Source: Escherichia coli
Lineage (GTDB): Bacteria > Pseudomonadota > Gammaproteobacteria > Enterobacterales > Enterobacteriaceae
NCBI RefSeq assembly: GCF_048403405.1
Contig: NZ_CP183129.1
DNA: 64,000 bases
Strand: one strand, 5' to 3'
The stretch's first letter is position 1. Each line of letters opens with the position of its first letter. The notes beneath the pieces are model-generated. The model had not been told where the DNA came from. It saw only the letters and a program-made list of their open reading frames with translations, and searched no databases. Below, piece by piece: positions 2,148 to 29,145 of this stretch. The position numbers and the translations under genes are program-made.

Positions 2148-2194
2148 CAAAATATTCTAAACTCTATTGATTTCGTGTCTTATGTGGTTTTTAA

Positions 2195-2209
2195 TTACCT
2201 CAGAGGTAA
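2195..2209. promoter_or_regulatory. Palindrome TTACC-TCAGA-GGTAA (operator-like site 3), overlapping the ribosome-binding region of the gene at 2213
   Basis: Perfect palindrome ending 3 nt before the ATG; its right arm AGGTAA doubles as a Shine-Dalgarno-like sequence; preceded by TATGTGGTT. Confidence 0.45.
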
Positions 2210-2212
2210 ATC

Positions 2213-2557
2213 ATGAGAAAACAGATACAGGCTCTTGGTCGACTCAAAACAGGCCAGATGAACAAAACAGAATCTGCGTATTGCCAGCACCTTGAGCTGC
2301 GTAAACGTGCAGGGGAAATCGCCTGGTATCGATTCGAGGGTATCAAGCTGCGGTTAGCTGACAACACGTTCTATACGCCCGATTTTGCTGTGATGCTCGC
2401 CACCGGCGAGATGGAACTGCACGAAGTGAAAGGTTTCTGGACCGACGACGCTAGGGTGAAAACCAAAGTCGCCGCAGATCAGTATCCGTTCCGAATCATC
2501 GGGGTAACGGTTAAACCAAAGAAAGCAGGTGGTGGCTGGAACATCGAAGAGTTCTGA
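2213..2557 (+). CDS. DUF1064 family phage protein
   Basis: 114 aa with the DUF1064-like pattern (ESAYCQHLELRKRAGEI...YTPDF...HEVKG) as recalled; typical early-region position. Confidence 0.55.
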   Translation: MRKQIQALGRLKTGQMNKTESAYCQHLELRKRAGEIAWYRFEGIKLRLADNTFYTPDFAVMLATGEMELHEVKGFWTDDARVKTKVAADQYPFRIIGVTVKPKKAGGGWNIEEF

Positions 2558-2609
2558 ATCGACGATCTTTTTAGTTATCAATGTAATCAATAAGTTATGT
2601 GGATAAGCG

Positions 2610-3239
2610 ATGGTAAAGATGGAAAGTAATATCAAAGGGTTAGTTGCCGCCGGGCATGAGATGGCTTCGGAACTGAAAGCTGAATGTGGTGCCGTTGATA
2701 TGCGTAGTGTGGCAAAGCTGCTCAGCGATTTGGCAACGCAACTGGAAGTGCAACTGGTGCGTGCTAATGCGCTGGCCGAAGACCAACAGAGAGCGATTGA
2801 GTCAATTAAGCAGGCTGATTCGGCTGTTAAGTTGGCACACAAGAAGTTTTCGGAGCTGGCAGCGGAGAATGCGGCACTGAAGGCTGCGCACCCTCAACCA
2901 TTCGGACCTGAGATGATGAAGGCTCTTGATGCGTATGAGAAGTATCAGGATGAAGTGCCGGAGACTGGGATGCTCAATGCATTTTTCATCTTGCGCGACA
3001 GTATCCGTGTTGACACCCCAGCCACCGATGCTTTCCTGGCTGAAGTGCGGGCGCAGGGCGTGGATGCTGCTATAGAAGCTGCAAAAAATCTGGTGGCCCA
3101 AGAATATGAGTATAAGGATTTCAAAGCGGCGCAGAGTGATTGCTGTATGCACCCTGGTTCAGATCTGGTAGGGAAGGTTGAAATGACTGAGTGGTTAGTT
3201 GACTTTGCTGCCCAGCTTCGCAAAGGAGGCAACCAGTGA
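2610..3239 (+). CDS. Hypothetical phage protein (alpha-helical/coiled-coil)
   Basis: 209-aa ORF in the early operon, no overlap conflicts, no recognisable family. Confidence 0.45.
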   Translation: MVKMESNIKGLVAAGHEMASELKAECGAVDMRSVAKLLSDLATQLEVQLVRANALAEDQQRAIESIKQADSAVKLAHKKFSELAAENAALKAAHPQPFGPEMMKALDAYEKYQDEVPETGMLNAFFILRDSIRVDTPATDAFLAEVRAQGVDAAIEAAKNLVAQEYEYKDFKAAQSDCCMHPGSDLVGKVEMTEWLVDFAAQLRKGGNQ

Positions 3240-3763
3240 GCAAGATTGACTATCAGGCACTGCGTGAAAAGGCAGAGAAAGCAACGTGTGGTGTGTGGTC
3301 GCTCGAATATGGAGAGGGACGATTTGATGGTGATGATGCGCTAATTCATCGTGAAGTTGCTGGATATATTCCCATTTGCAGAATTGAAGGAGCGCATCCT
3401 GAAAGCGGTTTCGATGAAGATTTCCAAACTGAACAGCAGGCCAATGCTGAATTCATCGCCGCAGCCAATCCGGCTACTGTGCTGGCGCTTCTGGATGAAC
3501 GGGAAAGAAACCAGCAATACATCAAACGCCGCGACCAGGAGAACGAGGATATTGCGCTAACGGTAGGGAAGCTGCGCGTTGAGCTGGAAGCCGCAGAGAA
3601 GCGCATAGCAGAACTGGAAGCGCGGGAAATACTGCTCCCTGAACGTAGCAGCATGCTTCATCGAACAGATTTTCACGATGATTACCAAACGGTAATGGCA
3701 TACAAAGTTTCTGAAGTCATCGATGCAATCCGCGCTACTGGCATTCGCATCAAAGGAGAGTGA
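3236..3763 (+). CDS. Ead/Ea22-like protein
   Basis: GTG start after AAAGGAGG; MSKIDYQALREKAEKA... N-terminus and coiled-coil C-terminus typical of Ead/Ea22-like early proteins (recalled). Confidence 0.55.
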   Translation: MSKIDYQALREKAEKATCGVWSLEYGEGRFDGDDALIHREVAGYIPICRIEGAHPESGFDEDFQTEQQANAEFIAAANPATVLALLDERERNQQYIKRRDQENEDIALTVGKLRVELEAAEKRIAELEAREILLPERSSMLHRTDFHDDYQTVMAYKVSEVIDAIRATGIRIKGE

Positions 3764-3764
3764 C

Positions 3765-4121
3765 GTGGAAATAAATCCAGAAGATGAGTTAAGCAATATC
3801 GTTTTATTTCCGGTAAAAGAGGATGACCCACGTAATCAGGTTAATTTTCTTTATGAGCCATCGGAAAGACCATACTGCCATCACGCTTCTGTCCGGGTTG
3901 ACGAAAAAGAGCGTCAGGTCCGCTGTAAAATCTGCGGTGCAGTTGTGGAGCCGTTTGACTGGATGCTCTCTGTGGCGAAAAGAGAAACCAGACTGGCAGA
4001 TGATGTAAGGCTATTGCGCCAGGAGGAACAGGAAAGGCGGAAAAATATAGAAAAGTTAATTCAGATTGAGCGTAACGCGAAAGCGCGGATACGCAGGGCG
4101 ACAAAATCCAGAACTGAATAA
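3765..4121 (+). CDS. Hypothetical protein with zinc-ribbon-like CHH...CKIC motif
   Basis: GTG at 3765 immediately after the Ead stop, with RBS AAAGGAGAG upstream; 118 aa, basic C-terminus. Confidence 0.4.
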   Translation: MEINPEDELSNIVLFPVKEDDPRNQVNFLYEPSERPYCHHASVRVDEKERQVRCKICGAVVEPFDWMLSVAKRETRLADDVRLLRQEEQERRKNIEKLIQIERNAKARIRRATKSRTE

Positions 4122-4216
4122 TTAAATTTAGCACTGTTAAAAATTTTATCCTTAACCGGAGGGATTTCTGCACCCTCAGAACATCAGGAGGCCGCCCGAA
4201 AGGGCGGTAATGAAAA

Positions 4217-4981
4217 ATGACTGAATTAACAAAAGAGCAATTAATCGAAGAAGCCAAATTAAAAATAGCGATTGCGAAATGCCACACGAATTCAGGGATG
4301 GCACGGGTAGAGGGTGAGTTATTCAAAATTGCACTGGCATCGCTGGAAGCAGATCCAGTTGCTTATATTTTCAAACATCCGGCCGGGAAATTATTCTGGG
4401 CTTTGACGGATGAAAGCAATAAAGAGCAATCGGACGTTATTCCTGTTTATGCCGCCCCTCCAGTGCCAGTAGTACCTGAAGAAAAACCAATGCCTAACCC
4501 TCTTAAAATGTACGCGGTCGATGCTGTTGCCGCTATTGCAGAGGTGAGAGGCTGGAACGCCTGCCGCGCCGCCATGCTTCAGGCCGAACCTGTAAGTAAT
4601 AGTGATGAGTTACCGCTGGACTATCTGCAAGGACACAAAGACGGCCTGGAGTGGGCTGCACAATTGGCAGAAGCCAATCATCCGCAAACAGGTGACTGGT
4701 TGTACGACGACCCAATCGATCTTGCCAGGGCGATTCGCAAAGGTCCTGATATGCCTACTGTTCAGGCTGGCAACTATCCGGTAACTCCGGATGGTTGGAT
4801 AAGCTGTAGTGAGCGAATGCCCGCTCAAGATGATTGGATTTTAATTTATTCAAAGCACGGCGAGTATATGGCAGGACAGGTACAAGGGGAATACGTGGAG
4901 TTGAGCGACGGCACTTTATCGTGGTTAGGGAACGCCTTGTACTGGATGCCTCTACCGGAACCGCCGCAGGAGGTTAATTGA
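4217..4981 (+). CDS. DUF551 domain protein
   Basis: C-terminus ...DGTLSWLGNALYWMPLPEPPQ matches the characteristic DUF551 ending (recalled). Confidence 0.5.
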   Translation: MTELTKEQLIEEAKLKIAIAKCHTNSGMARVEGELFKIALASLEADPVAYIFKHPAGKLFWALTDESNKEQSDVIPVYAAPPVPVVPEEKPMPNPLKMYAVDAVAAIAEVRGWNACRAAMLQAEPVSNSDELPLDYLQGHKDGLEWAAQLAEANHPQTGDWLYDDPIDLARAIRKGPDMPTVQAGNYPVTPDGWISCSERMPAQDDWILIYSKHGEYMAGQVQGEYVELSDGTLSWLGNALYWMPLPEPPQEVN

Positions 4982-5265
4982 TGGTCTCCTTCGCGAAATA
5001 TACGATTATTGACTGGATAGCATTCATTCAGGTTTTGCTCATCTGGTTTTATATGGCTTACAGGAGTGGACAGTGGATTGTCAGTGTAGCCTGTAGCAAT
5101 GGATGGCGTTGGTGGAACCGAAAGAATAAAAAAGCGCTGGCCTTGGCTTCGTTTTACGAAGCATTCAATCTTAACAGTCTTCAGCCTGGTTCTGTCGTTG
5201 TAGTCACCACTCAAAGCGGCATGACGATACAAATTCACAAGCCAAAGGAGGAAGGTCGTGGCTAA
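4978..5265 (+). CDS. Small hydrophobic hypothetical protein
   Basis: 95-aa ORF translationally coupled to its neighbours (ATGA overlap); Trp/aromatic-rich. Confidence 0.35.
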   Translation: MMVSFAKYTIIDWIAFIQVLLIWFYMAYRSGQWIVSVACSNGWRWWNRKNKKALALASFYEAFNLNSLQPGSVVVVTTQSGMTIQIHKPKEEGRG

Positions 5266-5539
5266 CCTGCAACTTGCCGTTAAAGGTGAATACTTCGATG
5301 CCATGATTCGCGGGGAGAAAACGGAAGAGTATCGCCTGTGTAATGACTACTGGAATAAGCGAATTATGTTCCGCGAGTATGACCGCCTGATTATCACAAA
5401 GGGATATCAGAAGCGCGACGATTCCAGCCGCAGAATTGACGTCCCGTATGACGGATATGAAATCAAGACAATCACACATCCGCACTTCGGCGATAAACCG
5501 GTAAAGGTGTTCGCTATAAAGGTGAATATTGATGGCTAA
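5258..5539 (+). CDS. Hypothetical protein (ASCH/PUA-like?)
   Basis: 93-aa ORF with RBS AAGGAGG upstream; family assignment is a weak recollection. Confidence 0.35.
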   Translation: MANLQLAVKGEYFDAMIRGEKTEEYRLCNDYWNKRIMFREYDRLIITKGYQKRDDSSRRIDVPYDGYEIKTITHPHFGDKPVKVFAIKVNIDG

Positions 5540-5870
5540 ATCAGCAGCAGAGCGCAAAGCCGCGCAGCGCGCTCGGCAGTCCGCCGCCGGTGAGCGCAAA
5601 ATTGAACTGGTGCTGGATAAGCAGGAGCAGGAAATGCTGGCGCGGAACTGCGCCGCCCGGCGCCCTGGTCACGATCCCTATGAAATGGCCGAGTACATCG
5701 CGCTGCTGATCCGCCAGGATGATGCACGTGTGCGCGGGCGTATAAAATCGATCAGTAGAAAACGTTGCGGTAAGTGCGGCGAGAGAGTTCCAGTTAATTC
5801 ATGTCCGTGTAATGGTGACTCGCAATGCTGGGTGACTAAAGGCTGGCATGAAACGAAATTAATAGTGTGA
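5529..5870 (+). CDS. Hypothetical protein with C-terminal Cys cluster (CGKCGERVPVNSCPC)
   Basis: 113-aa ORF, last gene before a terminator hairpin. Confidence 0.4.
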   Translation: MMAKSAAERKAAQRARQSAAGERKIELVLDKQEQEMLARNCAARRPGHDPYEMAEYIALLIRQDDARVRGRIKSISRKRCGKCGERVPVNSCPCNGDSQCWVTKGWHETKLIV

Positions 5871-5919
5871 CATGTCACGAGTAGATTATGCATGATGAAT
5901 TTGATGGGTTTTGAATACT

Positions 5920-5945
5920 GCCGCCAACTATGGCGGCTTTATTTT
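5920..5945 (+). terminator. Rho-independent terminator closing the early gene block
   Basis: Hairpin GCCGCC-AACTAT-GGCGGC followed by TTTATTTT. Confidence 0.5.
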
Positions 5946-5952
5946 GCATGGT

Positions 5953-5981
5953 ACTATTACCACAACGGTAACTATTACCAC
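5953..5981 (+). repeat. Direct repeat ACTATTACCAC x2 (18-bp period) upstream of the terminase small subunit gene
   Basis: Two exact 11-mers at 5953-5963 and 5971-5981 between the terminator and the terS start. Confidence 0.5.
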
Positions 5982-5988
5982 GGTGGTT

Positions 5989-6585
5989 ATGATGCCTGCT
6001 GAACCTAAAACCTATAAACGCAAATCAACGCAATTTAAGCCGCTCACAGCAATGCAGGAGGCTTATTGCCAGTCATACATCAAAACGCCTGAAAACCAGA
6101 CTCAGGCAGCGATTAACGCAGGATTCTCCCCAAATACAGCGGCAGTTAAAGCCAGTGTCATGATGCGCGATGAACGCATTCAAAAACGGATTGCCGAGTT
6201 GATGGAGGAGCGCAACAAACGAATGCGCGTCAGTGCTGATTACGTTCTCATGCGCCTGGTGGAGATCGACCAGATGGACGTGATCGATATCCTCAACGAC
6301 GATGGGAGCCTTAAACCAATCCGCGAGTGGCCGAAAATCTGGCGCACTACGCTTAGTGGCTTTGATCTGTCATCGACCATCATGAACATGAACGAGGATT
6401 CGATAGAGACAATCCTCAAAAAAATTAAATGGCCTGACAAGGTGAAGAACCTCGAACTGATTGGTAAGCACGTCGACGTCAACGCATTCAAAGAACGCCT
6501 GGATGTTAATGTGAATGTGACAATTGCTGATCGCATAGCGGCAGCCAGGAAGCGACTCAAAGAACGTCAGGATGGTAATCAGTGA
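5989..6585 (+). CDS. Terminase small subunit
   Basis: Placed directly upstream of and overlapping the large terminase; helical DNA-binding-type N-terminus; ATG pair at 5989/5992 after GGTGG (upstream in-frame Thr-rich extension from 5911 judged non-coding). Confidence 0.55.
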   Translation: MMPAEPKTYKRKSTQFKPLTAMQEAYCQSYIKTPENQTQAAINAGFSPNTAAVKASVMMRDERIQKRIAELMEERNKRMRVSADYVLMRLVEIDQMDVIDILNDDGSLKPIREWPKIWRTTLSGFDLSSTIMNMNEDSIETILKKIKWPDKVKNLELIGKHVDVNAFKERLDVNVNVTIADRIAAARKRLKERQDGNQ

Positions 6586-8057
6586 CAGATACAGCGTTAT
6601 CTCCTGAAGAGCAGTTGATCGAGGATATTGCAGGGTTTACTCACGATCCGCTTGGTTATGCCCTCTATGCGTTCCCGTGGGGGGAAGAGGGTACTGAACT
6701 GGCACATGCTACCGGCCCACGTCAGTGGCAGGCTGATGCGTTCCGAGAGATACGTGATCACCTGCAGAATCCAGAGACGCGCTATCAGCCGCTTATGCTG
6801 GCACGCGCTTCTGGTCACGGTATTGGTAAATCCGCATTCATCTCAATGCTGATCAACTGGGGCATGTCCACTTGCGAGGATTGTAAGGTCGTGGTGACCG
6901 CCAACACCGACAACCAGCTACGAACGAAGACCTGGCCGGAAATTATCAAGTGGTCAAACCTTGCTATCACGAAAGACTGGTTTACCTGTACCGCTACCGC
7001 GATGTACAGCAATGACCCTGGGCACGACAAGCGGTGGCGCGCTGACGCAATCCCCTGGTCTGAGCACAACACTGAGGCGTTCGCGGGACTACACAACGAG
7101 CGCAAACGCATCATCGTGGTGTTTGATGAAGCGTCGAACATTGCGGATCTGGTGTGGGAAGTTGCCGAGGGTGCGCTTACGGACGAAGACACCGAAATCA
7201 TCTGGGTGGCGTTCGGGAACCCGACGCGTAACACCGGGCGTTTCCGTGAGTGTTTCCGCAAGTACAAACACCGCTGGAAGTGTGCGCAGATTGACAGCCG
7301 GACGGTGGAAGGCACCAACAAACAGCAGTTGCAGAAATGGGTTGATGACTACGGGGAAGACAGCGACTTCGTTAAAATCCGTGTGCGCGGCATATTCCCT
7401 GATGCATCTGAATTGCAGTTTATTCCTACCGGTCTTACTGACGAGGCAATGAAACGGGTGGTAACTGCTGCGCAGGTGGCACATGCTCCGGTGATAATCG
7501 GCGTTGACCCTGCATACTCCGGTGTTGATGACGCGGTGATATACCTGCGGCAGGGGCTGCACAGTAAGGTGCTGTGGACCGGCAACAAGACCATTGACGA
7601 TCTGATTATGGCAAAGCGTATCGCTGACTTTGAAGACCAGTATCAGGCTGACGCGGTGTTCATCGACTTCGGTTACGGAACCGGTTTGAAGTCAATCGGT
7701 GACGGCTGGGGTCGTACATGGCAACTTGTTCCGTTCGGCGGTGCGTCCACTGACCCGCAGATGCTTAACAAGCGTGGGGAGATGTTCAACTCATGTAAGA
7801 CATGGCTGAGGCTGGGCGGCATGCTGGATGACCAGGAAACAGCAGACGACCTGTCGGCGGCAGAGTACAAAGTTCGTGTGGACGGTAAAATCGTTATCGA
7901 ACCGAAGGAAGATATCAAAGAGCGTCTTGGGCGTTCGCCGGGTAAAGGCGATGCGCTACTGCTGACGTTTGCTTTCCCTGTGTCGAAGCGTCTGCGAATT
8001 CCTGGGCAGCAGAACCAGCAAGGCAAGGCCATCACAGATTATGACCCGTATGCTTAA
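6582..8057 (+). CDS. Terminase large subunit
   Basis: 491 aa with ATPase region (GHGIGKSAF...VVFDEASNI) and C-terminal nuclease-like region, as recalled for large terminases. Confidence 0.85.
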   Translation: MTDTALSPEEQLIEDIAGFTHDPLGYALYAFPWGEEGTELAHATGPRQWQADAFREIRDHLQNPETRYQPLMLARASGHGIGKSAFISMLINWGMSTCEDCKVVVTANTDNQLRTKTWPEIIKWSNLAITKDWFTCTATAMYSNDPGHDKRWRADAIPWSEHNTEAFAGLHNERKRIIVVFDEASNIADLVWEVAEGALTDEDTEIIWVAFGNPTRNTGRFRECFRKYKHRWKCAQIDSRTVEGTNKQQLQKWVDDYGEDSDFVKIRVRGIFPDASELQFIPTGLTDEAMKRVVTAAQVAHAPVIIGVDPAYSGVDDAVIYLRQGLHSKVLWTGNKTIDDLIMAKRIADFEDQYQADAVFIDFGYGTGLKSIGDGWGRTWQLVPFGGASTDPQMLNKRGEMFNSCKTWLRLGGMLDDQETADDLSAAEYKVRVDGKIVIEPKEDIKERLGRSPGKGDALLLTFAFPVSKRLRIPGQQNQQGKAITDYDPYA

Positions 8058-8107
8058 TCCGCTGGTGGGGATAATGTCGTTGATATCCTCTGATGAGGAT
8101 AAAACAA

Positions 8108-8135
8108 AGCCAGCTCATCGGCTGGCTGTTTGTGA
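8108..8135. terminator. Bidirectional terminator hairpin between the large terminase and the minus-strand gene
   Basis: AGCCAGC-TCATC-GGCTGGCT with a T-rich run on the minus strand and GTTTGTG on the plus strand. Confidence 0.4.
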
Positions 8136-8147
8136 CATGTCACGGTG

Positions 8148-8504: not shown

Positions 8505-8511
8505 AATCTCA

Positions 8512-8538
8512 CCTTAAAAAAATGCCCGGCGAACCGGG
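8512..8538 (-). terminator. Putative minus-strand terminator immediately upstream of the RBS of the 8504 gene
   Basis: Hairpin CCCGGTTCGCCGGG followed by TTTTTTT on the minus strand. Confidence 0.4.
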
Positions 8539-8614
8539 AGAACTGGAAGCAATGAGTTATGCCTTCCGTGGCTGTACGGGTTTACAGCATGAAGTCATCG
8601 CAATGGCGTCCTGC

Positions 8615-8659
8615 TGTAAAAAGGGCGGTGATAGTCCTTCAAGGGAAACCATCACCGCC
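8615..8659 (-). terminator. Putative minus-strand terminator downstream of the tRNA
   Basis: 9-bp stem GGCGGTGAT/ATCACCGCC with 18-nt loop, followed on the minus strand by CTTTTTA. Confidence 0.4.
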
Positions 8660-8702
8660 AAGCCCCTGGAACTTCTGGCATCACGGTCCTTAGGCGTGAT
8701 TC

Positions 8703-8779
8703 TGGCGTGGCATGCAGGATTCGAACCTGCGACCAACCGCTTAGAAGGCGGTTGCTCTGTCCAACTGAGCTAATGCCAC
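8703..8779 (-). tRNA. tRNA-Arg (anticodon UCU), phage-encoded
   Basis: 77-nt cloverleaf folded by hand: acceptor GTGGCAT/ATGCCAC, D-arm GCTC-AGTTGGACA-GAGC, anticodon arm ACCGC-CTTCTAA-GCGGT, T-arm GCAGG-TTCGAAT-CCTGC, discriminator G, encoded CCA. Confidence 0.85.
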
Positions 8780-9101
8780 AACGCTGAGAGCACTTAGCCT
8801 GTTAAGGCGCCACACTTTGTCGCGGCTCCATAAATGCTCTCATCGTTGCACCCTCGTCTCTTCCGAGGCGTCACACCGAATCGCCGGGATGGTGAATCCC
8901 CGTGCGCGGAATAAAACCGCTCGACTTGCACATTCCGGCTACCTGGTTCGTTTGCCCGAGCAAGTGAGGGTGCCCCTTAAACGTATCCAGACCGCTATCG
9001 ACGCATGTGCCATACACCGTACTGCTCAAAATAAAAGCTCACCCCACCTGTTCAATTTAACGACAAGCCAGTCAGGTTAATAACCGGAATGAACTCTTTA
9101 C

Positions 9102-9116
9102 TTACCTGAAGGGTAA
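9102..9116. promoter_or_regulatory. Palindrome TTACC-TGAAG-GGTAA (operator-like site 4) upstream of the head-gene operon
   Basis: 15-bp palindrome about 45 nt upstream of TATGTGGTT-N5-GGTAATA and the 9206 start. Confidence 0.45.
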
Positions 9117-9205
9117 TAATTGTGCGTTAAATGTCAACCACCTACGATAAATAAATCATATGTGGTTAAATTGGTAATAATTTAATTGCGTACGGAGTCA
9201 TTGAT

Positions 9206-9412: not shown

Positions 9413-9426
9413 CCGGAGTCATTGAA

Positions 9427-11399: not shown

Positions 11400-11401
11400 T
11401 C

Positions 11402-18422: not shown

Positions 18423-21169
18423 TGCCTGTTGTTCCTACTACATCCGGACGTCAGGTGCAAAGTCGTGGTGTGCAAACCGGTGGTTTTCAGATCTTCGATG
18501 TTCCTCAAGCAGATCAGGTGCTGGCGAATGTCGCAGATCAGTATGCGGTGGCATATGGTGAAGCCAGGCAGAAAGCGAATGTTGCTATGGCCCAGGAGGC
18601 GTTACTGCAATTTAACCAATTTGCAGATGACCAGATTAACAACCCTGAAAGTGGGCTGATTTCTAAACAGGGTAAAAACGCTCTTGGTCAGAGTGACGCT
18701 GTTATGAAAAATATGCAGGAAAGGGCTCAGGCATTATTAGGCTCAATTCCTGAAAGTGAGGAAAGGAATAAATTATCCTTTCAACTCCAGCAGTCTATGC
18801 AGTCTTATTACAATCAGGCACGTCGATATGAAGTTGGGCAGTTTCAGCAATTCCAAGATCAAACGTATTTGTCAGGAAATGCATTGGCTGTCACTCAGTC
18901 TGCGGGGCTATATAGCGATAACCAAGCATTTGTCGATTTAGCCAAGCAGCGATTTGAATCTATTGATCAATACGCTGATGCGCATGGGCTTCCTGATGAG
19001 TGGCGTGTTCAGCAGAAAACTCAGCTCAAGGAACAAATGGGGCAGCAAGCATGGATAGGAAATATCGCTCAAAAATACAACGAGTTTCTTCAGGTTAATG
19101 GAGAGCCAGGGGATCTTGATGGTGTGAGTCGTGCAATATCACATGGTAATTCATTGGATGCTCGTGGTTTACGTAATAATAACCCTGGTAATATTGAAGC
19201 GAGCAAATCTAACCCGTGGGAAGGTCAGATCGGTAGCGATGGACGTTTTGCAACGTTTGCTACCCCTGAGCATGGAATCCGCGCGTTGGGTAAAAATATG
19301 TTGTCTTACCAGCGTCAAGGCTATGACACCGTTAGCGAGATTGTTAATCGCTATGCTCCGGCTAGTGATGGTAATAATACTGATGCTTATATTAGGGCAT
19401 TGTGTGGTGAGCTTGGTGTTGGGGAGAATGATCAGCTTGATATCTCTAACCCAAAGACACTAGCTGCTTTATGTGCTGGGATTATTAAACACGAAAATGG
19501 CAGTATGCCTTATAGCACCGAACAGCTTGAAACTGGTATCTCGGCAGCCCTTGGTCTAACTAACCTTGATTCACCTAAGCGTTATACAGGCAATGCGGCA
19601 TTTGATGCTATGAGCCCTCAAATGCAAATACAGGCATTGAGGCAGGCTAATGAGCTGAGAAATCAGTACCGCCAGCAGTATGCGGACCAGCTTAGCACCG
19701 TAGTTAAAGATGCATATTCAGCCCTTGATGAAGGATTGAAACCTGAGAAGTTACCTTCTGAGGACGATTTTATCCGGGCCAATGGTCCGCGCATTGGCGC
19801 TATGAAGTGGAAGGATATGCAGGCGCAGATACAATATGGAGGTGTCATTGGTGCCGCTAAAGACCTCACTCCAGAAGGACGACAAGACATTCTTGAACGT
19901 TTACGTCCACAGGATCCAAACGCTCCTGGATTTGCAGCTAACCAGCAACGCTGGGAGAAAATGCAGGCCAAATTTAAAGAGATGGATAGGGAGTGGGAGA
20001 TTCAGCAGGGAAGAAACAGGTTCGTGTCTTCAATGCAAAATAACTTCCCGCTGGACCCGAACGACAAAAACAATCAGGCAGCGGTAGACCGTTATTTCGC
20101 GCAGGATATCGCGCCTTCGTTTTCCATATCTGATCCGCAGAGCATCAATACACTGGTCACCGTCACAACTAAAAGCGGCATGATACCAACTCAGGTTAAA
20201 ACAATGCTTAACAGTGGAGCAACATCAAGAGATCCTGCGCTGGTTGTCCCGATGGCAAAATTCTACGGTCAGTTATTCGATAATAATCCGGCGGCAGCGG
20301 CAACACTTGATAAAAGTACGATGGCATTTTACGGCAAGGTTTACGATTATTCCCGCGCTGGCGTGCCGGAGGATAAGGCTGTTGATATGGCTTACAGCCA
20401 GGTGTTCCAACAGGATGACCGAATGAAACAGATGCTTTCCACTGCCATGCGAGACAAAAAATATGTCGCGGCGAGGGCAACTGCTGCACAAAATAACGCC
20501 AGCAGTCTGACTTCCTTTGGTTCGTGGTCTCCGGATATTACCGATCCAGGAAAATCAAATGCGGCCTATCAGCGAGATTACCAGACAATTTACGATGCTA
20601 ACTTTGTACAGACAGGTGGCGATGCAGAACAGGCTGAGAAAATGACCAATGCCATGATCAGAACCACCTGGGGAGTTTCTACGGTTAATGGCAAAGCAGA
20701 GGTTATGAAGTATGCACCTGAGGCATTGTACGGAGTAAATAATGGTGCTGGTAACTGGATACAGGGGCAGTGGGAGCAGGAAAAACGCGAGCTTAAATCA
20801 AAATCCTTTGGCGGTCCTCGCAGTGATACGGACTTAATACTTGTTTCTGATGGCCTTACGGCAAGGGATAGGAGTTATGCTGTTATGGTTTTACAGCCTG
20901 ACGCAAACGGAGCGATAGAACCGAGAAATTATATTGGAGAAAATGGTCTCCCTGTTCGTTTCAAGCCGGATCAGCTGACATCTCCAATGTACAGGCAAAC
21001 CATTAAGTTCCAGCAACAGCGTGTTGATGAGGCTAGAGTGCGGAGAGAAGGCAATCCGCTGCCGCAGTTCAGCAATAAAGATGGATATACTCCTCCAGAT
21101 CTGACCAAACCATTCGGTTATGGTTCAGCCAATTACCTTCCGAGCAATATATACGCAGGGGGCAAATAA
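18422..21169 (+). CDS. Internal virion / ejection protein (T7 gp15-like core protein)
   Basis: 915 aa, in the gp15 position; contains a conserved-looking block NNPGNIEASKSNPWEGQ...HGIRALGKNMLSY. Confidence 0.5.
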   Translation: MPVVPTTSGRQVQSRGVQTGGFQIFDVPQADQVLANVADQYAVAYGEARQKANVAMAQEALLQFNQFADDQINNPESGLISKQGKNALGQSDAVMKNMQERAQALLGSIPESEERNKLSFQLQQSMQSYYNQARRYEVGQFQQFQDQTYLSGNALAVTQSAGLYSDNQAFVDLAKQRFESIDQYADAHGLPDEWRVQQKTQLKEQMGQQAWIGNIAQKYNEFLQVNGEPGDLDGVSRAISHGNSLDARGLRNNNPGNIEASKSNPWEGQIGSDGRFATFATPEHGIRALGKNMLSYQRQGYDTVSEIVNRYAPASDGNNTDAYIRALCGELGVGENDQLDISNPKTLAALCAGIIKHENGSMPYSTEQLETGISAALGLTNLDSPKRYTGNAAFDAMSPQMQIQALRQANELRNQYRQQYADQLSTVVKDAYSALDEGLKPEKLPSEDDFIRANGPRIGAMKWKDMQAQIQYGGVIGAAKDLTPEGRQDILERLRPQDPNAPGFAANQQRWEKMQAKFKEMDREWEIQQGRNRFVSSMQNNFPLDPNDKNNQAAVDRYFAQDIAPSFSISDPQSINTLVTVTTKSGMIPTQVKTMLNSGATSRDPALVVPMAKFYGQLFDNNPAAAATLDKSTMAFYGKVYDYSRAGVPEDKAVDMAYSQVFQQDDRMKQMLSTAMRDKKYVAARATAAQNNASSLTSFGSWSPDITDPGKSNAAYQRDYQTIYDANFVQTGGDAEQAEKMTNAMIRTTWGVSTVNGKAEVMKYAPEALYGVNNGAGNWIQGQWEQEKRELKSKSFGGPRSDTDLILVSDGLTARDRSYAVMVLQPDANGAIEPRNYIGENGLPVRFKPDQLTSPMYRQTIKFQQQRVDEARVRREGNPLPQFSNKDGYTPPDLTKPFGYGSANYLPSNIYAGGK

Positions 21170-24558: not shown

Positions 24559-24559
24559 G

Positions 24560-25411
24560 ATGAAAAAAATAAATTTGTTTTTTGGCATAGTGCTTTCAAT
24601 AGTCTCTGTAAATCCTACAGCTGCCAGTTCATTGCAATGCAATAAGGATAACTTTGATGCATGCAAAACGTGCGAACAATTATCAAAGGCTATCGACTTA
24701 AAAGAACCTAATCGTGGCGATTACTATAGAGGGGCTTTATGGAATGGGCTTTACGCCTCTTATGTAATTAATTGCCCTGTGGTTGCAGAGAAGTTACTGA
24801 GCCATGGTGCTATACCATCATATGGCGGATATATGGGGTCTATGGGGGCGGTTCTGACAGGAAAATGGCCTCATAACAATGAATCAATAAATCTTTCATG
24901 GGCAGATTTGCTTATAAAACATGGATTTGATGTTAATAGGCATACGGGGAATTATAAATCAGCTACTGAAGTATGGGCTATAGATAAAAAACAGATTGAA
25001 TATAAGTCAGTTTTTGACAAGTTAATTCAATCCAGCGAAGTAAAACCACTCGATCCTTCAAGAAATTTAGAATGGTGTGCGTCTGAAGGGTATCGCTCAG
25101 TTGTCGTTTATTCCCTTAACTCATGTATAGAAAATGCTATAAAACGTTTGGATGACGGTGTTTCTTCAGCGTCTGATATTTCATCAGCAGCCGTAAATTC
25201 CTGTACTAGCGATGTAGAAAATTTCAATAAGCATTTGGCATGCAAAGCAGCTGTTAAAGAAAACTCTGATAAAGAGAGAAGCAACGTTTACCAGTTATTA
25301 ACCAGTGATAGTCAAATGAATAAAAATGTTATTGATATGCTGAAGGAAAGAAATATTGAAACGGTTCTTGAATTTAGAGCTGAAAATCGATCAGCGAAAA
25401 CTGCACAGTGA
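24560..25411 (+). CDS. Secreted hypothetical protein with ankyrin-like repeats (moron), AT-rich
   Basis: Signal peptide MKKINLFFGIVLSIVSVNPTAAS; two ankyrin-like segments (...AEKLLSHGAIPS..., ...ADLLIKHGFDVN...); start 1 nt after the gp16-like stop; terminator follows. Confidence 0.55.
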   Translation: MKKINLFFGIVLSIVSVNPTAASSLQCNKDNFDACKTCEQLSKAIDLKEPNRGDYYRGALWNGLYASYVINCPVVAEKLLSHGAIPSYGGYMGSMGAVLTGKWPHNNESINLSWADLLIKHGFDVNRHTGNYKSATEVWAIDKKQIEYKSVFDKLIQSSEVKPLDPSRNLEWCASEGYRSVVVYSLNSCIENAIKRLDDGVSSASDISSAAVNSCTSDVENFNKHLACKAAVKENSDKERSNVYQLLTSDSQMNKNVIDMLKERNIETVLEFRAENRSAKTAQ

Positions 25412-25417
25412 TCAAAC

Positions 25418-25442
25418 AGGCCGCTTTCGCGGCCTTGTTTTT
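25418..25442. terminator. Bidirectional terminator hairpin
   Basis: AGGCCGC-TTTC-GCGGCCT followed by TGTTTTT; hairpin core GGCCGCTTTCGCGGCC is identical to the one at 28670. Confidence 0.55.
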
Positions 25443-25602
25443 AACGAATGCCACCGCCGCCAGGGCGGGAATCCGCAGAACGCCCACCGCAGCGGGAGCC
25501 GTCAGCGGCAGTATCGCTGTCGTGCTGACAACGACCGGCAAAGGCCTGAGTTGAAGCTACCAGAGACAACAAAACGAACAGTGCAGCAAATGCTTTTTTC
25601 AT
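25441..25602 (-). CDS. Small secreted Gly/Cys-containing peptide (53 aa) with its own promoter (moron)
   Basis: Internal start MKKAFAALFVLLSLVASTQAFA gives a clean signal peptide; promoter-like hexamers upstream and terminator downstream. Confidence 0.45.
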   Translation of the reverse strand: MKKAFAALFVLLSLVASTQAFAGRCQHDSDTAADGSRCGGRSADSRPGGGGIR

Positions 25603-25615
25603 TGTGAAATTTCCA

Positions 25616-25643
25616 TCTATAAGCCACCTCAATGTGGCGTCAA
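25616..25643 (-). promoter_or_regulatory. Candidate sigma70 promoter for the small secreted peptide (-35 TTGACG, -10 TATAGA, 16-nt spacer)
   Basis: Minus-strand hexamers at 25638-25643 and 25616-25621. Confidence 0.35.
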
Positions 25644-25672
25644 TGAGTGTAGCACTGACTTTTGTTTCGTCC

Positions 25673-25695
25673 ACAAAAAAGCCCGCAGCGCGGGC
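25673..25695 (-). terminator. Minus-strand rho-independent terminator
   Basis: GCCCGC-AGC-GCGGGC followed on the minus strand by TTTTTT, immediately after the stop at 25696. Confidence 0.5.
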
Positions 25696-25929
25696 TTACT
25701 TTTCTTCAGGTTTGTTGTCTTCAGATTTCTTCTTGATGCTTGGTTTTTGTCTAAGACCGAAAATACCAGCCACTGCAACAACTGTACCGATCACTGTGCC
25801 AGCTAGAACTTCATGACCTGTTAAACCTAATAATGTTGCACAAGCTACTGTAAAAATAGTTGCACTCAGGCCAAACCACTGCCCACGTTTATCTCTATTA
25901 ATAGCCCCGTCAAGTGCCTTTTCCTCCAT
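25696..25929 (-). CDS. Small two-TM membrane protein (possibly the C-terminal part of a frameshifted larger gene)
   Basis: 77 aa with two hydrophobic segments and a Lys-rich tail; the same frame stays open upstream to ~26073. Confidence 0.45.
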   Translation of the reverse strand: MEEKALDGAINRDKRGQWFGLSATIFTVACATLLGLTGHEVLAGTVIGTVVAVAGIFGLRQKPSIKKKSEDNKPEEK

Positions 25930-25958
25930 TTTCTGGCGGTGAGCAAACTCCTTCTCCG

Positions 25959-26243
25959 TCAGCTGGAAGATGCGTTCGGGGGCATCAGGTAAAATATCCT
26001 GATACCCGCGAAGCAGATAGGGGGAGGAAGCGGACCCTGAAACGCATGGTGAGCGACAACTATCTCCTGAATTTCAGGGCGATCAAGAACTCTTGTGAAG
26101 GCATCTGGGTGTTGAATGATCTCGTTACTTAGCCCTTCCTCAACTTCCTCGAACTCAGTTTCTTCGTTATCACTTGGTTGCCCAATAGATTTTTGCATAT
26201 TTGTCGAAGGACATTCCTTTAGCTTCTGGTTTTCCTCTTGCAT
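25959..26243 (-). CDS. Acidic hypothetical protein (possibly the middle part of a frameshifted gene)
   Basis: 94-aa ORF overlapping the upstream ORF by 74 nt in another frame; C-terminus degenerates into Pro-rich sequence near a G5 run at ~26019-26026. Confidence 0.3.
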   Translation of the reverse strand: MQEENQKLKECPSTNMQKSIGQPSDNEETEFEEVEEGLSNEIIQHPDAFTRVLDRPEIQEIVVAHHAFQGPLPPPICFAGIRIFYLMPPNASSS

Positions 26244-26496
26244 TTGAGTTTTTCCCTGTCACTATTGCCCATTTTCCGCCAGCAGGCGCTGCAATTTTTT
26301 TTCCGTTCTTTACTATATATTCAGCATAAACACGATTTTCTGACCGTCTGAGATCGTCTCCGACCATATTCATGTCTCTTGATATAACTTTGACGACAGA
26401 GTCTCGGTTTAAAGCCTTGGCATAGTTGGAGCCAGGAACGATACCCAAAGGGGTGCCAGACTCTATAGCCAGCTCCTTGACATATCTTCTGCTCAT
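26170..26496 (-). CDS. Hypothetical protein, putative DNA-binding/regulatory N-terminal module
   Basis: ATG at 26496 after GAGGT; MSRRYVKELAIESGTPLGIVPGSNYAKALNRDSVVKV... Confidence 0.45.
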   Translation of the reverse strand: MSRRYVKELAIESGTPLGIVPGSNYAKALNRDSVVKVISRDMNMVGDDLRRSENRVYAEYIVKNGKKIAAPAGGKWAIVTGKNSNARGKPEAKGMSFDKYAKIYWATK

Positions 26497-26617
26497 ATGA
26501 ACCTCAACCAATCGACTTTACCAATCGGGTAATTTTAAACATGAGTATAATGCTTTTAACTGCAACGAGTGTAAACAATTATTGATAATTGTAGGCACAT
26601 CCCTGTGCCGCCGCCCG

Positions 26618-27310
26618 TCAGAAGAACCCTGCTTTGTCGTTGATGTACTCCGCGTGCGTCTGGATATCACGCAGGCATTTGCTCACACCGACGATGTAGC
26701 AGAACATGGTGGTCAACTCCGCCGCCGCGCCCGATACGTCGTGCCCGTCTTCCTGTAACTGGTTTAGCAGATTCATCAGCAGTGAGTTCTCCGTCAGGCC
26801 GAGAACACCAGACGGCGAATGAATCAGGCTGCGGTAGCCGGGCTTCAGTGGGGCGCTGTAGGTTTTGTTCTCTACCTTCATTGCCTGCATCACTGCTGAT
26901 GCTGTGGCGTTGGCTACCTGGTCGGCAACCATCTTTATGCGTTCTTCCTGCGGGAGCGAGTTTTTAATGTAACTTCCGGTGCGGCGGATCTGAGGAAGAA
27001 CCTCACCTGTAACCCATTCAAGAAATCTGAATGCTCTCGTTCCCTCAGTCATTGCCTCTTTGCAACGCAGAATAAGGATGTAGAGACCTGATTCTGAAAC
27101 GATGGATAGTTCTTGTATTCCACCAGGGGTCTGTATTGAATACAGCCCCTTTTTGTTCCAGCCTTTTTTATCAAGTTTTCTCGCTTGTGTAACATCAATA
27201 TTCAAAGCATTGCACACATCTTTGGTGACAAACCAAGGTTCTCCGTCAATCATGAACATACGGATCTGGCAGGATGACTCAAAGGAAAAGATGGAAGGTT
27301 TGGTATTCAT
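26618..27310 (-). CDS. Antirepressor (Bro-N domain plus KilA-C/ANT C-terminal domain)
   Basis: Start MNTKPSIF after AAAGGTGA; Bro-N-like N-terminus (FMIDGEPWFVTKDVCNALNI...) and ANT-like C-terminus, as recalled. Confidence 0.7.
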   Translation of the reverse strand: MNTKPSIFSFESSCQIRMFMIDGEPWFVTKDVCNALNIDVTQARKLDKKGWNKKGLYSIQTPGGIQELSIVSESGLYILILRCKEAMTEGTRAFRFLEWVTGEVLPQIRRTGSYIKNSLPQEERIKMVADQVANATASAVMQAMKVENKTYSAPLKPGYRSLIHSPSGVLGLTENSLLMNLLNQLQEDGHDVSGAAAELTTMFCYIVGVSKCLRDIQTHAEYINDKAGFF

Positions 27311-27669
27311 AGCGATCACCTTTGTAGTTAGGTTAATCACCACCGCTGAGACCAATCAGATGGTGGTGAACTGTGCAGAGTTGGTCTTACCGGCTACAAA
27401 GGAACCCGGCGCACCTTTCGGTGCCCCCACACAGCCCACCATAGAATAGGTGCGCTTTACACATAAAAAAACCGCTTATGCGGCATATGTGCCTCTGTAG
27501 TAATCCGGGAGACCAATCCCGGCACTGGATTTTGCCAGTGCCCGATTACTATGGCACAAGAGGAGTGCAATGTAAATTTACCGAAAAGGTAATAATAAAT
27601 GCATAACTCACGTTATTTCAACCCTATATGGTTTGATTTATCCCATTTCAGAAAATACCTGCCTATTTT

Positions 27670-27699
27670 TTTGCCAGTATGCGTATACTTTCGATAGAA
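27670..27699 (+). promoter_or_regulatory. Candidate sigma70 promoter (-35 TTGCCA, 18-nt spacer, -10 TAGAAT) for the 27718 operon
   Basis: Hexamers read directly from the sequence; palindrome site 5 abuts the -10. Confidence 0.4.
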
Positions 27700-27701
27700 T
27701 G

Positions 27702-27716
27702 TTTACCCTAGAGGTA
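27702..27716. promoter_or_regulatory. Palindrome TTACC-CTAGA-GGTAG (operator-like site 5, one arm imperfect)
   Basis: Lies between the -10 hexamer and the start codon, an operator-like position. Confidence 0.4.
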
Positions 27717-27717
27717 G

Positions 27718-28173
27718 TTGGGGGTGCCCGTGAACACGAAGAGAGCTACAGTAATGCAGCATTTGAGGAAATCAGAAAAAAATAAAGACCATGAAATATT
27801 GAGTAAGGCCATTGTTCGGGCTTCCAATAATACTGTTATACCTCATGCTGAAGAGTCTGGACAGAAATTTCTTATTCGGTATTTCACTGAAAATAGTGCA
27901 GTTGAGGAGATTTTAAAACATCAGGGAGGGGAATTTAAATGTGGAAAACTGGCAGATTATGTTCGTCGTGAAACGTCTGAACAAGAAGTATATTATGCTG
28001 ATATTAATCATAAGTCAGGTGTGAAAATTGTAATAGGCTATTACACAACTCCCAAAAATGTTATGCATGAGGTCCCAAAGATGTCCGTCGAGAAATCTCA
28101 TGCAATCTCGCGCAGGATGTTTGCACGCACTGCCGAAGATATGGCTCAGGAGCTCTACGACGATGCTGAATAA
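27718..28173 (+). CDS. Hypothetical protein with acidic C-terminus; candidate antitoxin/immunity partner of the downstream YafO-like gene (ATG alternative at ~27754)
   Basis: 151-aa ORF, AT-rich; its stop overlaps the start of the next gene (ATGCTGAATAA). Confidence 0.45.
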   Translation: MGVPVNTKRATVMQHLRKSEKNKDHEILSKAIVRASNNTVIPHAEESGQKFLIRYFTENSAVEEILKHQGGEFKCGKLADYVRRETSEQEVYYADINHKSGVKIVIGYYTTPKNVMHEVPKMSVEKSHAISRRMFARTAEDMAQELYDDAE

Positions 28174-28477
28174 ATTCCAGGGGTTGGTTCACCCTGGAAT
28201 TTTTGGGAAGGACCCTGAGCTAATACCTATCAAAAACGCGTTCATAGATCACTGGCGCTACGGTCATCATAAGGATTTCGGAAAGGACACTCTGTTTCGG
28301 GATCCACCGAAAGAAATGCTGGAATATCACATACGCCACGTTCACGTAAACATCGGAAACTATACTGACAAGTTTGGTGAGAGCGGTACGGACAATGCTG
28401 GAAAAACTGGGCGTCTGGGAAGAAAGACAAGACCACTAACAAGCATAAAAAGATCCCAACCAGTGACGTGTATGTGA
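28163..28477 (+). CDS. YafO-like toxin, N-terminal part (gene appears frame-split)
   Basis: FGKDTLFRDPPKEMLEYHIRHVHV resembles the recalled YafO motif FGRDALYDD...ERVAHIHL. Confidence 0.4.
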   Translation: MLNKFQGLVHPGIFGKDPELIPIKNAFIDHWRYGHHKDFGKDTLFRDPPKEMLEYHIRHVHVNIGNYTDKFGESGTDNAGKTGRLGRKTRPLTSIKRSQPVTCM

Positions 28478-28668
28478 TTTATCTGGTCACATCTGAACGC
28501 CATGCCTTCCTTCTGGATTATTGGGATGAACCAGCACATAAGACAGTAGAAATTGACGAGCAGAAGCAAAAATTAGTTGTCGAGTGTGACAGAATTTTGC
28601 GGCTGAAAAAGTTAGAATCCATGCCGCGCGATGCTAGTTTGTGGGACCCAGAATTTTACGACTGTTAA
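28468..28668 (+). CDS. YafO-like toxin, C-terminal part in the -1 frame
   Basis: YLVTSERHAFLLDYWDEPAHK resembles recalled YafO HLVYCQGAFDEQAWLLIAILKPEPHK; overlaps the previous ORF by 10 nt. Confidence 0.35.
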   Translation: MYVIYLVTSERHAFLLDYWDEPAHKTVEIDEQKQKLVVECDRILRLKKLESMPRDASLWDPEFYDC

Positions 28669-28669
28669 T

Positions 28670-28692
28670 GGCCGCTTTCGCGGCCTTTAAAT
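28670..28692. terminator. Bidirectional terminator hairpin
   Basis: GGCCGC-TTTC-GCGGCC followed by TTTAAATTT; same hairpin sequence as at 25419-25434. Confidence 0.5.
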
Positions 28693-28950
28693 TTACCGGG
28701 TTTGTTTTCGTAATTGTTCGGCACAATAGTCGAGATGTGTTTGCAGATCCCGCATAGACATCTGTGAGCTGGTGACGTAGTTAATCAGTGCAGTCAGTTC
28801 GGCAAGTGGGCCATCGACATTAAATCCATCCTTATCGAGATCCCGGAGTAATTTCATCAAGTGCGATCCCTCCACCAGTGACCTGACGCCTCCCGGCGTG
28901 TGAATCCTTTCGGTAAATCCGTCTTCCAGTGGATAGTGATACTGCTGCAT
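28693..28950 (-). CDS. Stand-alone KilA-C/ANT C-terminal domain protein (paralog of the antirepressor C-terminus)
   Basis: Internal ATG at 28950 after GGAGAAG; MQQYHYPLEDGFTERIHTPGGVRSLVEGSHLMKLLRDLDKDGFNV... aligns with the C-terminal ~85 aa of the antirepressor at 26618-27310. Confidence 0.6.
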   Translation of the reverse strand: MQQYHYPLEDGFTERIHTPGGVRSLVEGSHLMKLLRDLDKDGFNVDGPLAELTALINYVTSSQMSMRDLQTHLDYCAEQLRKQTR

Positions 28951-29026
28951 CTTATCTTCTCCATGCAATAACTGTATGTTTATACAGTAACAAATAATTT
29001 GTTTGCTATCCAGCACGTTTTGCAAA

Positions 29027-29041
29027 TTACCTGAAAGGTAA
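29027..29041. promoter_or_regulatory. Palindrome TTACC-TGAAA-GGTAA (operator-like site 6) in the divergent region upstream of the tailspike gene
   Basis: Perfect palindrome; followed by ATATCTATTCGTA (also beside site 1) and TATGTGGTT-N5-GGTAATA. Confidence 0.45.
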
Positions 29042-29145
29042 TATCTATTCGTATTTACAGCCTTTCTATCCATATGTGGTTTTTCAGGTAATAGAATAAC
29101 CAGATATGCGGCGCAACGGGTGCTGCGACTATCTGGAGATTTAAC

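Follow-up and report, generated by a model that had tools for sequence, protein, structure and literature searches.

We examined a 64,000-nucleotide stretch of the Escherichia coli contig NZ_CP183129.1 (assembly GCF_048403405.1), hereafter called the window, for a repeated promoter-like module made up of the 9-mer TATGTGGTT, five further nucleotides and GGTAATA. Approximately the first 34 kb of the window are a prophage of the epsilon15/phiV10 type (Uetakevirus), and the module belongs to a regulatory cassette of this prophage group. The cassette consists of one or two operators of the phage repressor Rep (here O), a second small palindrome (here P), and a -10-like box, which at the head and tailspike genes continues from an orphan GGTAATA. 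It heads nearly every transcription unit: PL, post-cro, DUF1064-to-gp49, head/tail, moron, tailspike and lysis. That the modules are core promoters under the control of Rep seems to us probable. The fuller proposal, in which the module is the core-promoter end of the cassette, with Rep bound to O and P serving as an auxiliary operator, would be right about half of the time in our judgement, and P being itself a Rep site is a possibility that we place somewhat below even.

E. coli, Salmonella, Klebsiella and Enterobacter often carry prophages of this genus (epsilon15, phiV10, SPC32H and relatives), and these prophages change the O-antigens. The switch between lysis and lysogeny, formed by the Rep tetramer, the antirepressor Ant and LexA, has been structurally characterised. 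The prophage in the window is closest to phage EC.W1-9 (97-98% identity). From the window start, it carries replication genes, early-right genes, terS/terL, head and tail genes, a moron region, ant, the tailspike gene and the lysis genes. The rep gene lies to the left of the window start, and is present in EC.W1-9 and phiV10, which are 97-98% identical phages. The ant gene (28693-28949, minus strand) stands behind a LexA box of the form CTGT-N8-ACAG (CTGTATGTTTATACAG, 28972-28987), as it does in SPC32H. The list of open reading frames (ORFs) extends ant to an ATG at 29073, inside the 9-mer, and homology places its start at 28949.

The 9-mer TATGTGGTT occurs exactly three times in the window, each time on the plus strand: at 2181-2189 (site 1), 9159-9167 (site 2) and 29073-29081 (site 3). 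Its chance expectation is 0.45, and three copies were reached in 3 of 100 shuffles. The whole module, TATGTGGTT-N5-GGTAATA, is found without a mismatch at 9159-9179 and 29073-29093, with 0.02 expected by chance and two copies reached in none of 100 shuffles. At site 1, 5 nt separate the 9-mer from the palindrome TTACCTCAGAGGTAA (2195-2209) downstream of it. Exact TTACC-N5-GGTAA palindromes are located at 2133-2147, 9102-9116 and 29027-29041, and end 33, 42 and 31 nt 5' of the respective 9-mers. Each of the three sites heads a transcription unit and is preceded by a terminator or a divergent gene. Downstream of site 1 is a DUF1064/Holliday-junction-resolvase-like gene (2213-2557), downstream of site 2 are gp3, portal and capsid, and downstream of site 3 is the tailspike ORF (29146-31797). 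An earlier note on this DNA had described the repeat before the head genes and the tailspike, its palindromic variant at site 1 and a palindrome 30-45 nt upstream of each 9-mer. This description was borne out, with coordinates correct to 1-2 nt and the gene context as claimed. The same note held that absence of the motif from homologous positions in related phages would speak against it. The module is present at homologous positions in phiV10, epsilon15, SPC32H, Tyrion, PAT1 and Klebsiella phages, so this objection falls away.

On the evidence of homology, the upstream palindromes are operators of Rep (ATTACC-N5-GGTAAT) and not activator sites. In the GenBank record of epsilon15 they are annotated as "protein_bind: repressor" before terS, gp3, the tailspike gene and RuvC, and at OL. 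The epsilon15 repressor features at 2931-2947, 19895-19911 and 35906-35922 align with the window sites at 9102, 29027 and 2133, respectively, and the feature at 12-27 is the homologue of the terS-site operators at 5957. The phiV10 Rep matches the SPC32H Rep (PDB 5D50) with E = 4e-42. It is the repressor annotation of the homologous palindromes, together with the homology of Rep, that identifies the window palindromes as repressor operators. The same O is used by all nine genomes examined, down to 42% Rep identity. Rep homologues in the phage collection all come from this phage group, except for four weak partial matches from Moraxella and Pseudomonas phages. Within the window, TTACC-N5-GGTAA with at most one mismatch was found 14 times, against 0.9 expected. 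GGTAATA corresponds to an extended Rep half-site, and occurs in 20 copies against 4.3 expected, 6 of these inside full operators. The SPC32H Rep is reportedly a tetramer whose DNA-binding pairs are formed across dimers; the small antirepressor Ant is said to disassemble it, and the ant promoter to be LexA-controlled. A second-hand description of this Rep-Ant switch is given in PMC9638917, which cites Kim et al. 2016 (PNAS 113:E2480).

Site 1 has two Rep operators: the exact palindrome TTACCTGCAGGGTAA (2133-2147), upstream of the DUF1064 promoter described below, and TTACCTCAGAGGTAA (2195-2209), over the predicted start site and the ribosome-binding site of gene 2213-2557. The operator at 29027-29041 is situated between the divergent ant and tailspike genes, and abuts the -35 (TTGCAA) of the leftward ant promoter. 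Two adjacent operators, at 5957-5971 and 5975-5989 (the latter TTACCACGGTGGTTA), cover the terS ribosome-binding site and start codon; the second has a GGTTA arm in E. coli phages where epsilon15 has GGTAA. At the terS site we found neither a P element nor a clear promoter. A terminator-like hairpin (5920-5937, plus strand) lies directly 5' of the two terS operators. When otherwise near-identical E. coli prophages are compared over 2120-2215 and 9090-9150, the five central operator bases and the DNA just outside are hypervariable, with differences at almost every position. Hardly any change is seen in the operator arms, in P or in the promoter hexamers.

Alignment of the operator-adjacent sites defined P as a 14-bp partial palindrome with the consensus AwCCATATrTGGTT, of which TATGTGGTT represents the centre and the strong right arm, i.e. 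(TA)TGTGGTT. In eight annotated genomes, from phages of E. coli, Salmonella, Enterobacter and Klebsiella, [AT]TNTGGTT was found at fixed distances from the operator end (11, 32-35 and 43-44 nt), and identical peaks were obtained with 535 distinct operator contexts from 88 sequences. Positions C4 and G11-G12-T13-T14 are invariant in 20 non-redundant P sites of six classes. In the window, matches to the P position weight matrix (PWM) of at least 12 bits start at 250, 9154, 27620, 29068 and 31819, all beside operators, where the shuffle mean was 1.2; the 30 kb of host DNA in the window contains none. Two of these matches include copies of the 9-mer: AATCATATGTGGTT (9154-9167, 19.6 bits), before the head operon, and ATCCATATGTGGTT (29068-29081, 21.5 bits). 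The corresponding copy at site 1, TGTCTTATGTGGTT (2176-2189), has a weak left arm and a lower score. The best copy of all, AACCATATATGGTT, stands upstream of the phiV10 lysis genes. A search of IMG/VR with this perfect P returned at least 120 loci. Among the matches listed, 6 are near an operator; these six belong to the lysis class and have a gap of 29. None of those listed pointed to a link with another phage group or gene, and the others seem to be chance hits in viruses rich in AT (median GC 37%).

P is no mark of late genes alone: copies are found at PL, post-cro, DUF1064, moron and lysis, and the late terS site has none. In the early PL of phiV10 it occupies the spacer between a perfect TTGACA and the -10. 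The claim of the earlier note that the element marks middle and late operons does not hold, given its presence at this early promoter and at the post-cro and moron promoters. The PL copy also bears on a possible function at the RNA level, in which the motif would be a leader hairpin or a nut-like site in transcripts that start upstream. AACCAUAUAUGGUU could form a 5-bp hairpin, and the head leader can fold GGUUAAAUU and AAUUUAAUU around GGUAAU. However, the PL element, placed between -35 and -10, is not transcribed and has the opposite orientation, fold z-scores of -0.3 to -0.6 are not significant, none of the sites matches Rfam, and no upstream promoter was found for the head unit. A role in RNA thus seems to us highly improbable. 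Only a little less so is P being the operator of the Cro-like protein (the phiV10 p41 homologue), which would damp promoters during lytic growth. This protein is universal in the genus and has an invariant putative recognition helix, TTSHYIQTHLTG, and P takes repressing positions at PL and at the DUF1064 promoter. Yet OR, from which a Cro protein has to control the repressor promoter, contains three O sites but lacks P, and repression of the head, tailspike and lysis promoters in the lytic phase makes little sense. Several further candidates were dropped on inspection by eye: sigma-54 (-24/-12) spacing, the DnaA box TGTGGATAA (incompatible with the ATATGG and ATCTGG variants), the consensus sequences of IHF, Fis and PhoP, and MerR-type spacers of 19-20 nt.

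Within each class of sites, the distance from O to P is held while the DNA in between diverges. The tailspike class has a gap of 26 nt in all 102 distinct sequences that could be parsed, across 53 different intervening sequences. In the lysis class, the gap is 29 nt in 23 of the 26 sequences with a full operator, and 28-30 nt in the other three. The remaining 12 of the 38 lysis sequences lack a full operator, and often have a half operator 4-6 nt from P instead. The head class has a gap of 37-38 nt, and post-cro and OL have a gap of 5 nt. In the DUF1064/RuvC class the order is O, 28 nt, P, 5 nt, O, the mirror image of the phiV10 OL/PL arrangement (O, 5, P, 28, O); being mirror images, the two layouts are identical in the direction of transcription. 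Measured from centre to centre, the O-P distances are 19.5, 40.5-43.5 and 51.5-52.5 bp, which is about 2, 4 and 5 helical turns. The preserved spacing and phase argue that O and P are functionally coupled, on the same face of the DNA.

These data must be weighed against the simpler notion that no factor binds P at all, and that its conservation reflects the common descent of duplicated cassettes plus ordinary promoter constraints, with Rep acting through O and GGTAAT half-sites. Some observations fit it well. The left arm of the tailspike P coincides with the -35 (TTCATA), the GGTT of the right arm is lost in some lineages, and the GGTAA before the -10 is invariant, including in ten sequences missed by the anchoring search pattern. 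An alignment by eye matches the P of the DUF1064 spacer to the operator of the PR spacer, save for one extra base. We nevertheless consider this explanation distinctly unlikely. The same 14-mer is found in different registers relative to -35 and -10, so that no single promoter function explains its conservation, and C4 and G11-T14 are invariant in 20 sites of six classes. Furthermore, the O-P gaps are exact where the DNA between has diverged completely, and variants without a full operator keep a half-site 4-6 nt from P.

Promoters were scored with an approximate weight matrix for sigma-70. Its calibration used PL, which scores 11.6, and coding DNA, where the best score per 100 nt is 4.1 in the median, 7.1 at the 90th percentile and 9.7 at most. 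Predicted promoters recur in the same register across genera, with scores of 8.7-11.5 at DUF1064, 6.2-10.2 at the tailspike, 9.3-10.8 at post-cro and 6-11.7 at lysis. A conserved pair of sigma-70 hexamers separated by 17 +/- 1 nt was found at sites 1 and 3, but not at site 2, where scores stay at background level (at most 7.7). The site 1 promoter is predicted on the plus strand as TTGATT (2167-2172), 17 nt and TTTAAT (2190-2195), in the same register in seven of seven genomes. P fills its spacer, with the 9-mer at the 3' end, and the predicted start and the ribosome-binding site lie under the second operator. Most of about 50 distinct relatives keep the hexamers, P and the operator arms unchanged, and the operator centres and flanks vary freely. 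Another candidate further upstream (TTGATA-16-CAAAAT, 2126-2153) was rejected, as its -35 is not kept in relatives.

At site 3, the predicted tailspike promoter on the plus strand comprises TCCATA (29069-29074), 17 nt and TAGAAT (29092-29097), with a GGTAA half-site (29087-29091) immediately 5' of the -10. It scores 6.9 in the window, and 9.6-10.2 in relatives that have TTCATA. In 102 distinct sequences, the -10 varies in its third base only (TAGAAT in 94, TACAAT in 7, TAAAAT in 1), and the -35 in its second base only (TTCATA in 60, TCCATA in 36, TACATA in 6). The N5 between GGTT and GGTAA takes 24 different forms in the same set, and rare variants have spacers of 16 or 18 nt. This confinement of variation to tolerated positions is the pattern of a real sigma-70 promoter.

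The head site is different. An orphan Rep half-site, GGTAATA, within GGTAATAATTT (9173-9183, plus strand), overlaps two -10-like boxes, AATAAT (9176-9181) and TAATTT (9178-9183), for which we found no supporting -35. GGTAATAATTT resembles GGTAATAATTC at the PR of epsilon15, and by its likeness to site 3 and to that promoter the head -10 is probably one of the two boxes. The head promoter is intrinsically weak or in need of help. Nine genomes from four host genera share, almost without change, a block of about 37 nt around P, AAATAAATCATATGTGGTTAAATTGGTAATAATTTAA, with 1-2 changes in Tyrion and BUCT711, while the gp3 protein falls to 58% identity over the same genomes.

The weakness of the head promoter is the strongest reason for considering that P could be the site of a phage-encoded positive regulator, with the head, tailspike and lysis promoters firing only in its presence. 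At the early promoters, the same factor would shut transcription off by binding P in the spacer, giving a dual switch like that of phi29 p4. Consistent with this notion, no sigma-70 promoter rises above background at the head operon in eight genomes, the -35 is poor at lysis and at tailspike promoters of the E. coli type, and the P consensus is tight and distinct from O. P is also centred near -41, the position of a class II activator, at the post-cro and moron promoters. A candidate for the regulator is encoded at 5529-5870, in the last of the early-right genes, which directly precedes terS; the product is assigned to PHROG 536 ("transcriptional regulator") and is 71-79% identical across genera. 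This protein of 113 aa, encoded on the plus strand, has a predicted strand-helix-helix (beta-alpha-alpha) core, an invariant C-terminal Cys cluster (C79, C82, C91 and C99), and at least 770 homologues (E <= 1e-5); the named ones among the matches listed are unnamed proteins of Enterobacteriaceae. PerC-like and AlpA-like genes are present in relatives. As regards a possible loading site for Q/AlpA-type antitermination, which would lie between -35 and -10, P does occupy spacers at some sites. Several results speak against a positive regulator, and we regard it as unlikely, less so than a P without any binding factor. P is found in PL, which has a perfect -35, and is missing from the late terS unit. 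Counted from the end of P, the predicted -10 lies at +1 at PL and DUF1064, +8 at lysis, +11 at the tailspike and +22 at post-cro. P thus shows neither a single activator distance to the -10 nor a restriction to late operons. The centre of P ranges from -19.5 to -41, and the +1 and +8 placements are incompatible with a bound polymerase. The candidate protein itself gave no Pfam, NCBIfam or PDB match, and its structural model is of low confidence (pLDDT 56).

These findings separate the parts of what the earlier note had proposed. Its statement that the motif does not match the sigma-70 -35 consensus stands for the head site, and more weakly for the tailspike, but fails at site 1, where the 9-mer is the spacer of the good and conserved TTGATT-17-TTTAAT. 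Its proposal of activator-dependent promoters was right in that these are promoter regions, with a poor -35 at head and tailspike. It is not supported by the variable register, by the early sites, or by the palindromes being repressor operators. Our search identified no activator, and 5529-5870 is a candidate regulator gene only.

For Rep-controlled cassettes, the most economical mechanism would be the following. In the lysogen, Rep would bind the strong O, and its second DNA-binding pair would hold the weaker P, the orphan half-site, or both, on the same face of the helix. Rep on O and P would thereby cover the -35, spacer and -10 of the promoters. With its centre at about -60 to -82, an operator stands at too great a distance to occlude the polymerase alone, hence the suggestion that P provides a second contact over the core promoter. 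P overlaps the -35 or the spacer of each promoter it accompanies, in phase with O, and its right arm TGGTT is one change away from the Rep half-site TGGTA, O and P sharing an ACC...GGT core. The GGTTA arm of the second terS operator in E. coli phages also speaks for a likeness between the P arm and a Rep half-site. Disassembly of Rep by the LexA-controlled Ant would then release all units. A late activator would not be required, although the head promoter is intrinsically weak. It is tempting to extend this to a general statement: P would be a second class of operator, read by the second domain pair of the tetrameric Rep or by a new small regulator, and with O it would make short, helically phased clamps on the core promoters of all units; late genes would be held off directly by one antirepressor-sensitive repressor, with no dedicated late activator. 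In this extended form the proposal is speculative, and we find it rather doubtful.

A number of observations weigh against Rep acting through P. P (AACCA-N4-TGGTT) is consistently unlike O (TTACC-N5-GGTAA), with one extra base between the ACC and GGT cores and a conserved T before GG. By its sequence it looks more like the site of another protein, or of another binding mode, than like a degenerate operator. Some Klebsiella lineages have lost the GGTT of the tailspike P (GATT, AGTT) and kept the -35, GGTAA and -10. The orphan GGTAATA at head and tailspike is oriented wrongly for a mirror image of the O-5-P composite. No sigma-70 promoter above background (PWM at most 7.7) was detected within 420 nt upstream of the head module in the eight genomes, and a positive factor may still be needed there. 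The classes of sites are few, their ancestry may be shared, and the helical-phase argument rests on about six lineages. Finally, a literature search found no mapped transcription starts or binding results for these sites. The ZX5 phage paper gives four promoters, from software prediction only.

Much of this system has been described elsewhere. Distributed Rep operators (in the epsilon15 annotation) and the Rep-Ant-LexA switch (in SPC32H) are known already. Immunity in epsilon15 (gp38) and SPC32H is likewise due to Rep, with the same genus, a homologous repressor and ATTACC-N5-GGTAAT operators at the same genome positions, and SPC32H has the same small ant gene behind a LexA box beside the tailspike. 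The epsilon15, phiV10 and SPC32H records contain no annotation of P or of its fixed distance from O, and none of the orphan half-sites or the predicted promoters. Apart from the primary SPC32H and epsilon15 papers, which it did not include, the literature search yielded no description of P, the spacing rule, the orphan half-sites or the predicted promoters. We are dealing with mostly known phage biology and one apparently undescribed element, P. The proposed arrangement recalls lac O1/O2/O3, the lambda CI OL-OR complex and cooperativity at adjacent lambda operators, in that a strong site and weaker ones are whole helical turns apart. In each case, a tetramer with two DNA-binding units could bridge the sites, covering a promoter beyond the main operator. 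By contrast with lac and lambda, the auxiliary site here has another consensus and half-site spacing, the distances are very short (20-53 bp), and binding of Rep to P is inferred only. A different comparison is offered by P2/P4 Ogr-Delta, Mu C/Mor and phi29 p4. There too the -35 is weak or absent, a conserved dyad lies near the promoter, and a gene for a small, possibly zinc-binding regulator is found just before the late genes. Unlike P, the Ogr, C, Mor and p4 sites keep to one position (about -43 to -55, or -82) and to late promoters, and we found no gene here that is homologous to those of Ogr, C, Mor or p4.

What is gained is a regulatory map in which each unit has an operator, a second palindrome and a -10 box, with predictions of start sites. 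The predicted starts are near 2200-2203, at about 29104, at about 31852 (or about 31845 with the -10 next to P), at about 297 and, leftward, at about 9103; a head-operon start would be expected at about 9185-9192. P is an unannotated conserved element with strict spacing to the operator. The analysis also provides a testable model for silencing by an operator 60-80 bp upstream of a promoter. Practical uses are modest; they include tight promoter parts that an antirepressor can induce, and an improved annotation of the promoters and operators in these prophages.

The remaining cassettes in the window are built from the same parts. The post-cro cassette consists of the operator GTACCTCAAAGGTAA (230-244, one mismatch), 5 nt and the P element AACCAAATCTGGTT (250-263), and a terminator (196-215) stands just 5' of it. 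The predicted post-cro promoter is TTGATC (262-267), 17 nt and AAAAAT (285-290), with a score of 10.8; it is conserved in four genomes, and relatives have (c/a)AAAAT at the -10. In the moron cassette, an operator (27578-27592), 27 nt and the P element AACCCTATATGGTT (27620-27633) bracket a leftward promoter, TTGAAA-18-TATTAT (27621-27592, minus strand). The lysis promoter, on the plus strand, has a GGTAAT half operator (31809-31814), the P element ATCCGTAAATGGTT (31819-31832), TATTGTG and the -10 TATGAT (31840-31845). In 38 distinct relatives, TATTGTG follows P in 34, and TATGAT or TATAAT is present in all 38, a count partly forced by the search pattern; this hexamer lies 7 nt past P, and a further TATTGT adjoins P.

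A leftward promoter faces away from the head operon: TTGACA (9137-9132), 16 nt and TACCCT (9115-9110), minus strand, aimed at tRNA-Arg(tct) (8703-8779, minus strand) between terL and the head genes. It scores 11.0-12.5 in eight of eight genomes, against 11.6 for PL, and in relatives its spacer is more variable than the flanking hexamers. As its -10 falls inside the palindrome at 9102-9116, the head-site operator sits on the -10/+1 region of this divergent tRNA promoter. A plus-strand ORF that overlaps the tRNA gene (8522-8773, a homologue of "phiV10p04") is probably no gene, and strong terminator-like hairpins are present on the minus strand near tRNA-Arg, at 8659-8624 and 8538-8525.

The moron region shows additional signals. 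A C4 antisense RNA (RF01695, 78.6 bits) and isrK (RF01394, 74.7 bits), both above the Rfam gathering score, were found at 27359-27541 (minus strand), directly upstream of a 245-aa ORF (26618-27355, minus strand) in a position where relatives annotate a Bro-N antirepressor. From sequence, the segment 26618-27541 (minus strand) looks like a second antirepressor module between the tail genes and ant. It is similar to P1/P7 immI and Gifsy isrK-anrP, where C4 antisense RNA and isrK also precede a Bro-N type antirepressor-like ORF, and differs from them in that the moron here, a neighbour of the repeated module and no part of it, is additionally bracketed by a Rep operator and P. Further on, a good sigma-70 promoter (TTGCCA-18-TAGAAT, 10 of 12 positions), then directly an operator-like TTACCCTAGAGGTAG with one mismatch (27671-27717, plus strand), precedes ORFs at 27718-28668 that are absent from phiV10. 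This moron has apparently been placed under Rep control.

The tailspike leader can form a stable hairpin at 29100-29136 (plus strand; -20.9 kcal/mol, z = -3.8), the 3' arm of which enters the Shine-Dalgarno GGAG. Relatives have a GC-rich hairpin of another sequence at this position, and an automatic alignment of poor quality gave no compensatory pairs. The predicted tailspike start, at about 29104, lies inside the 5' arm of the hairpin, so that read-through and promoter-proximal transcripts might differ in their translation.

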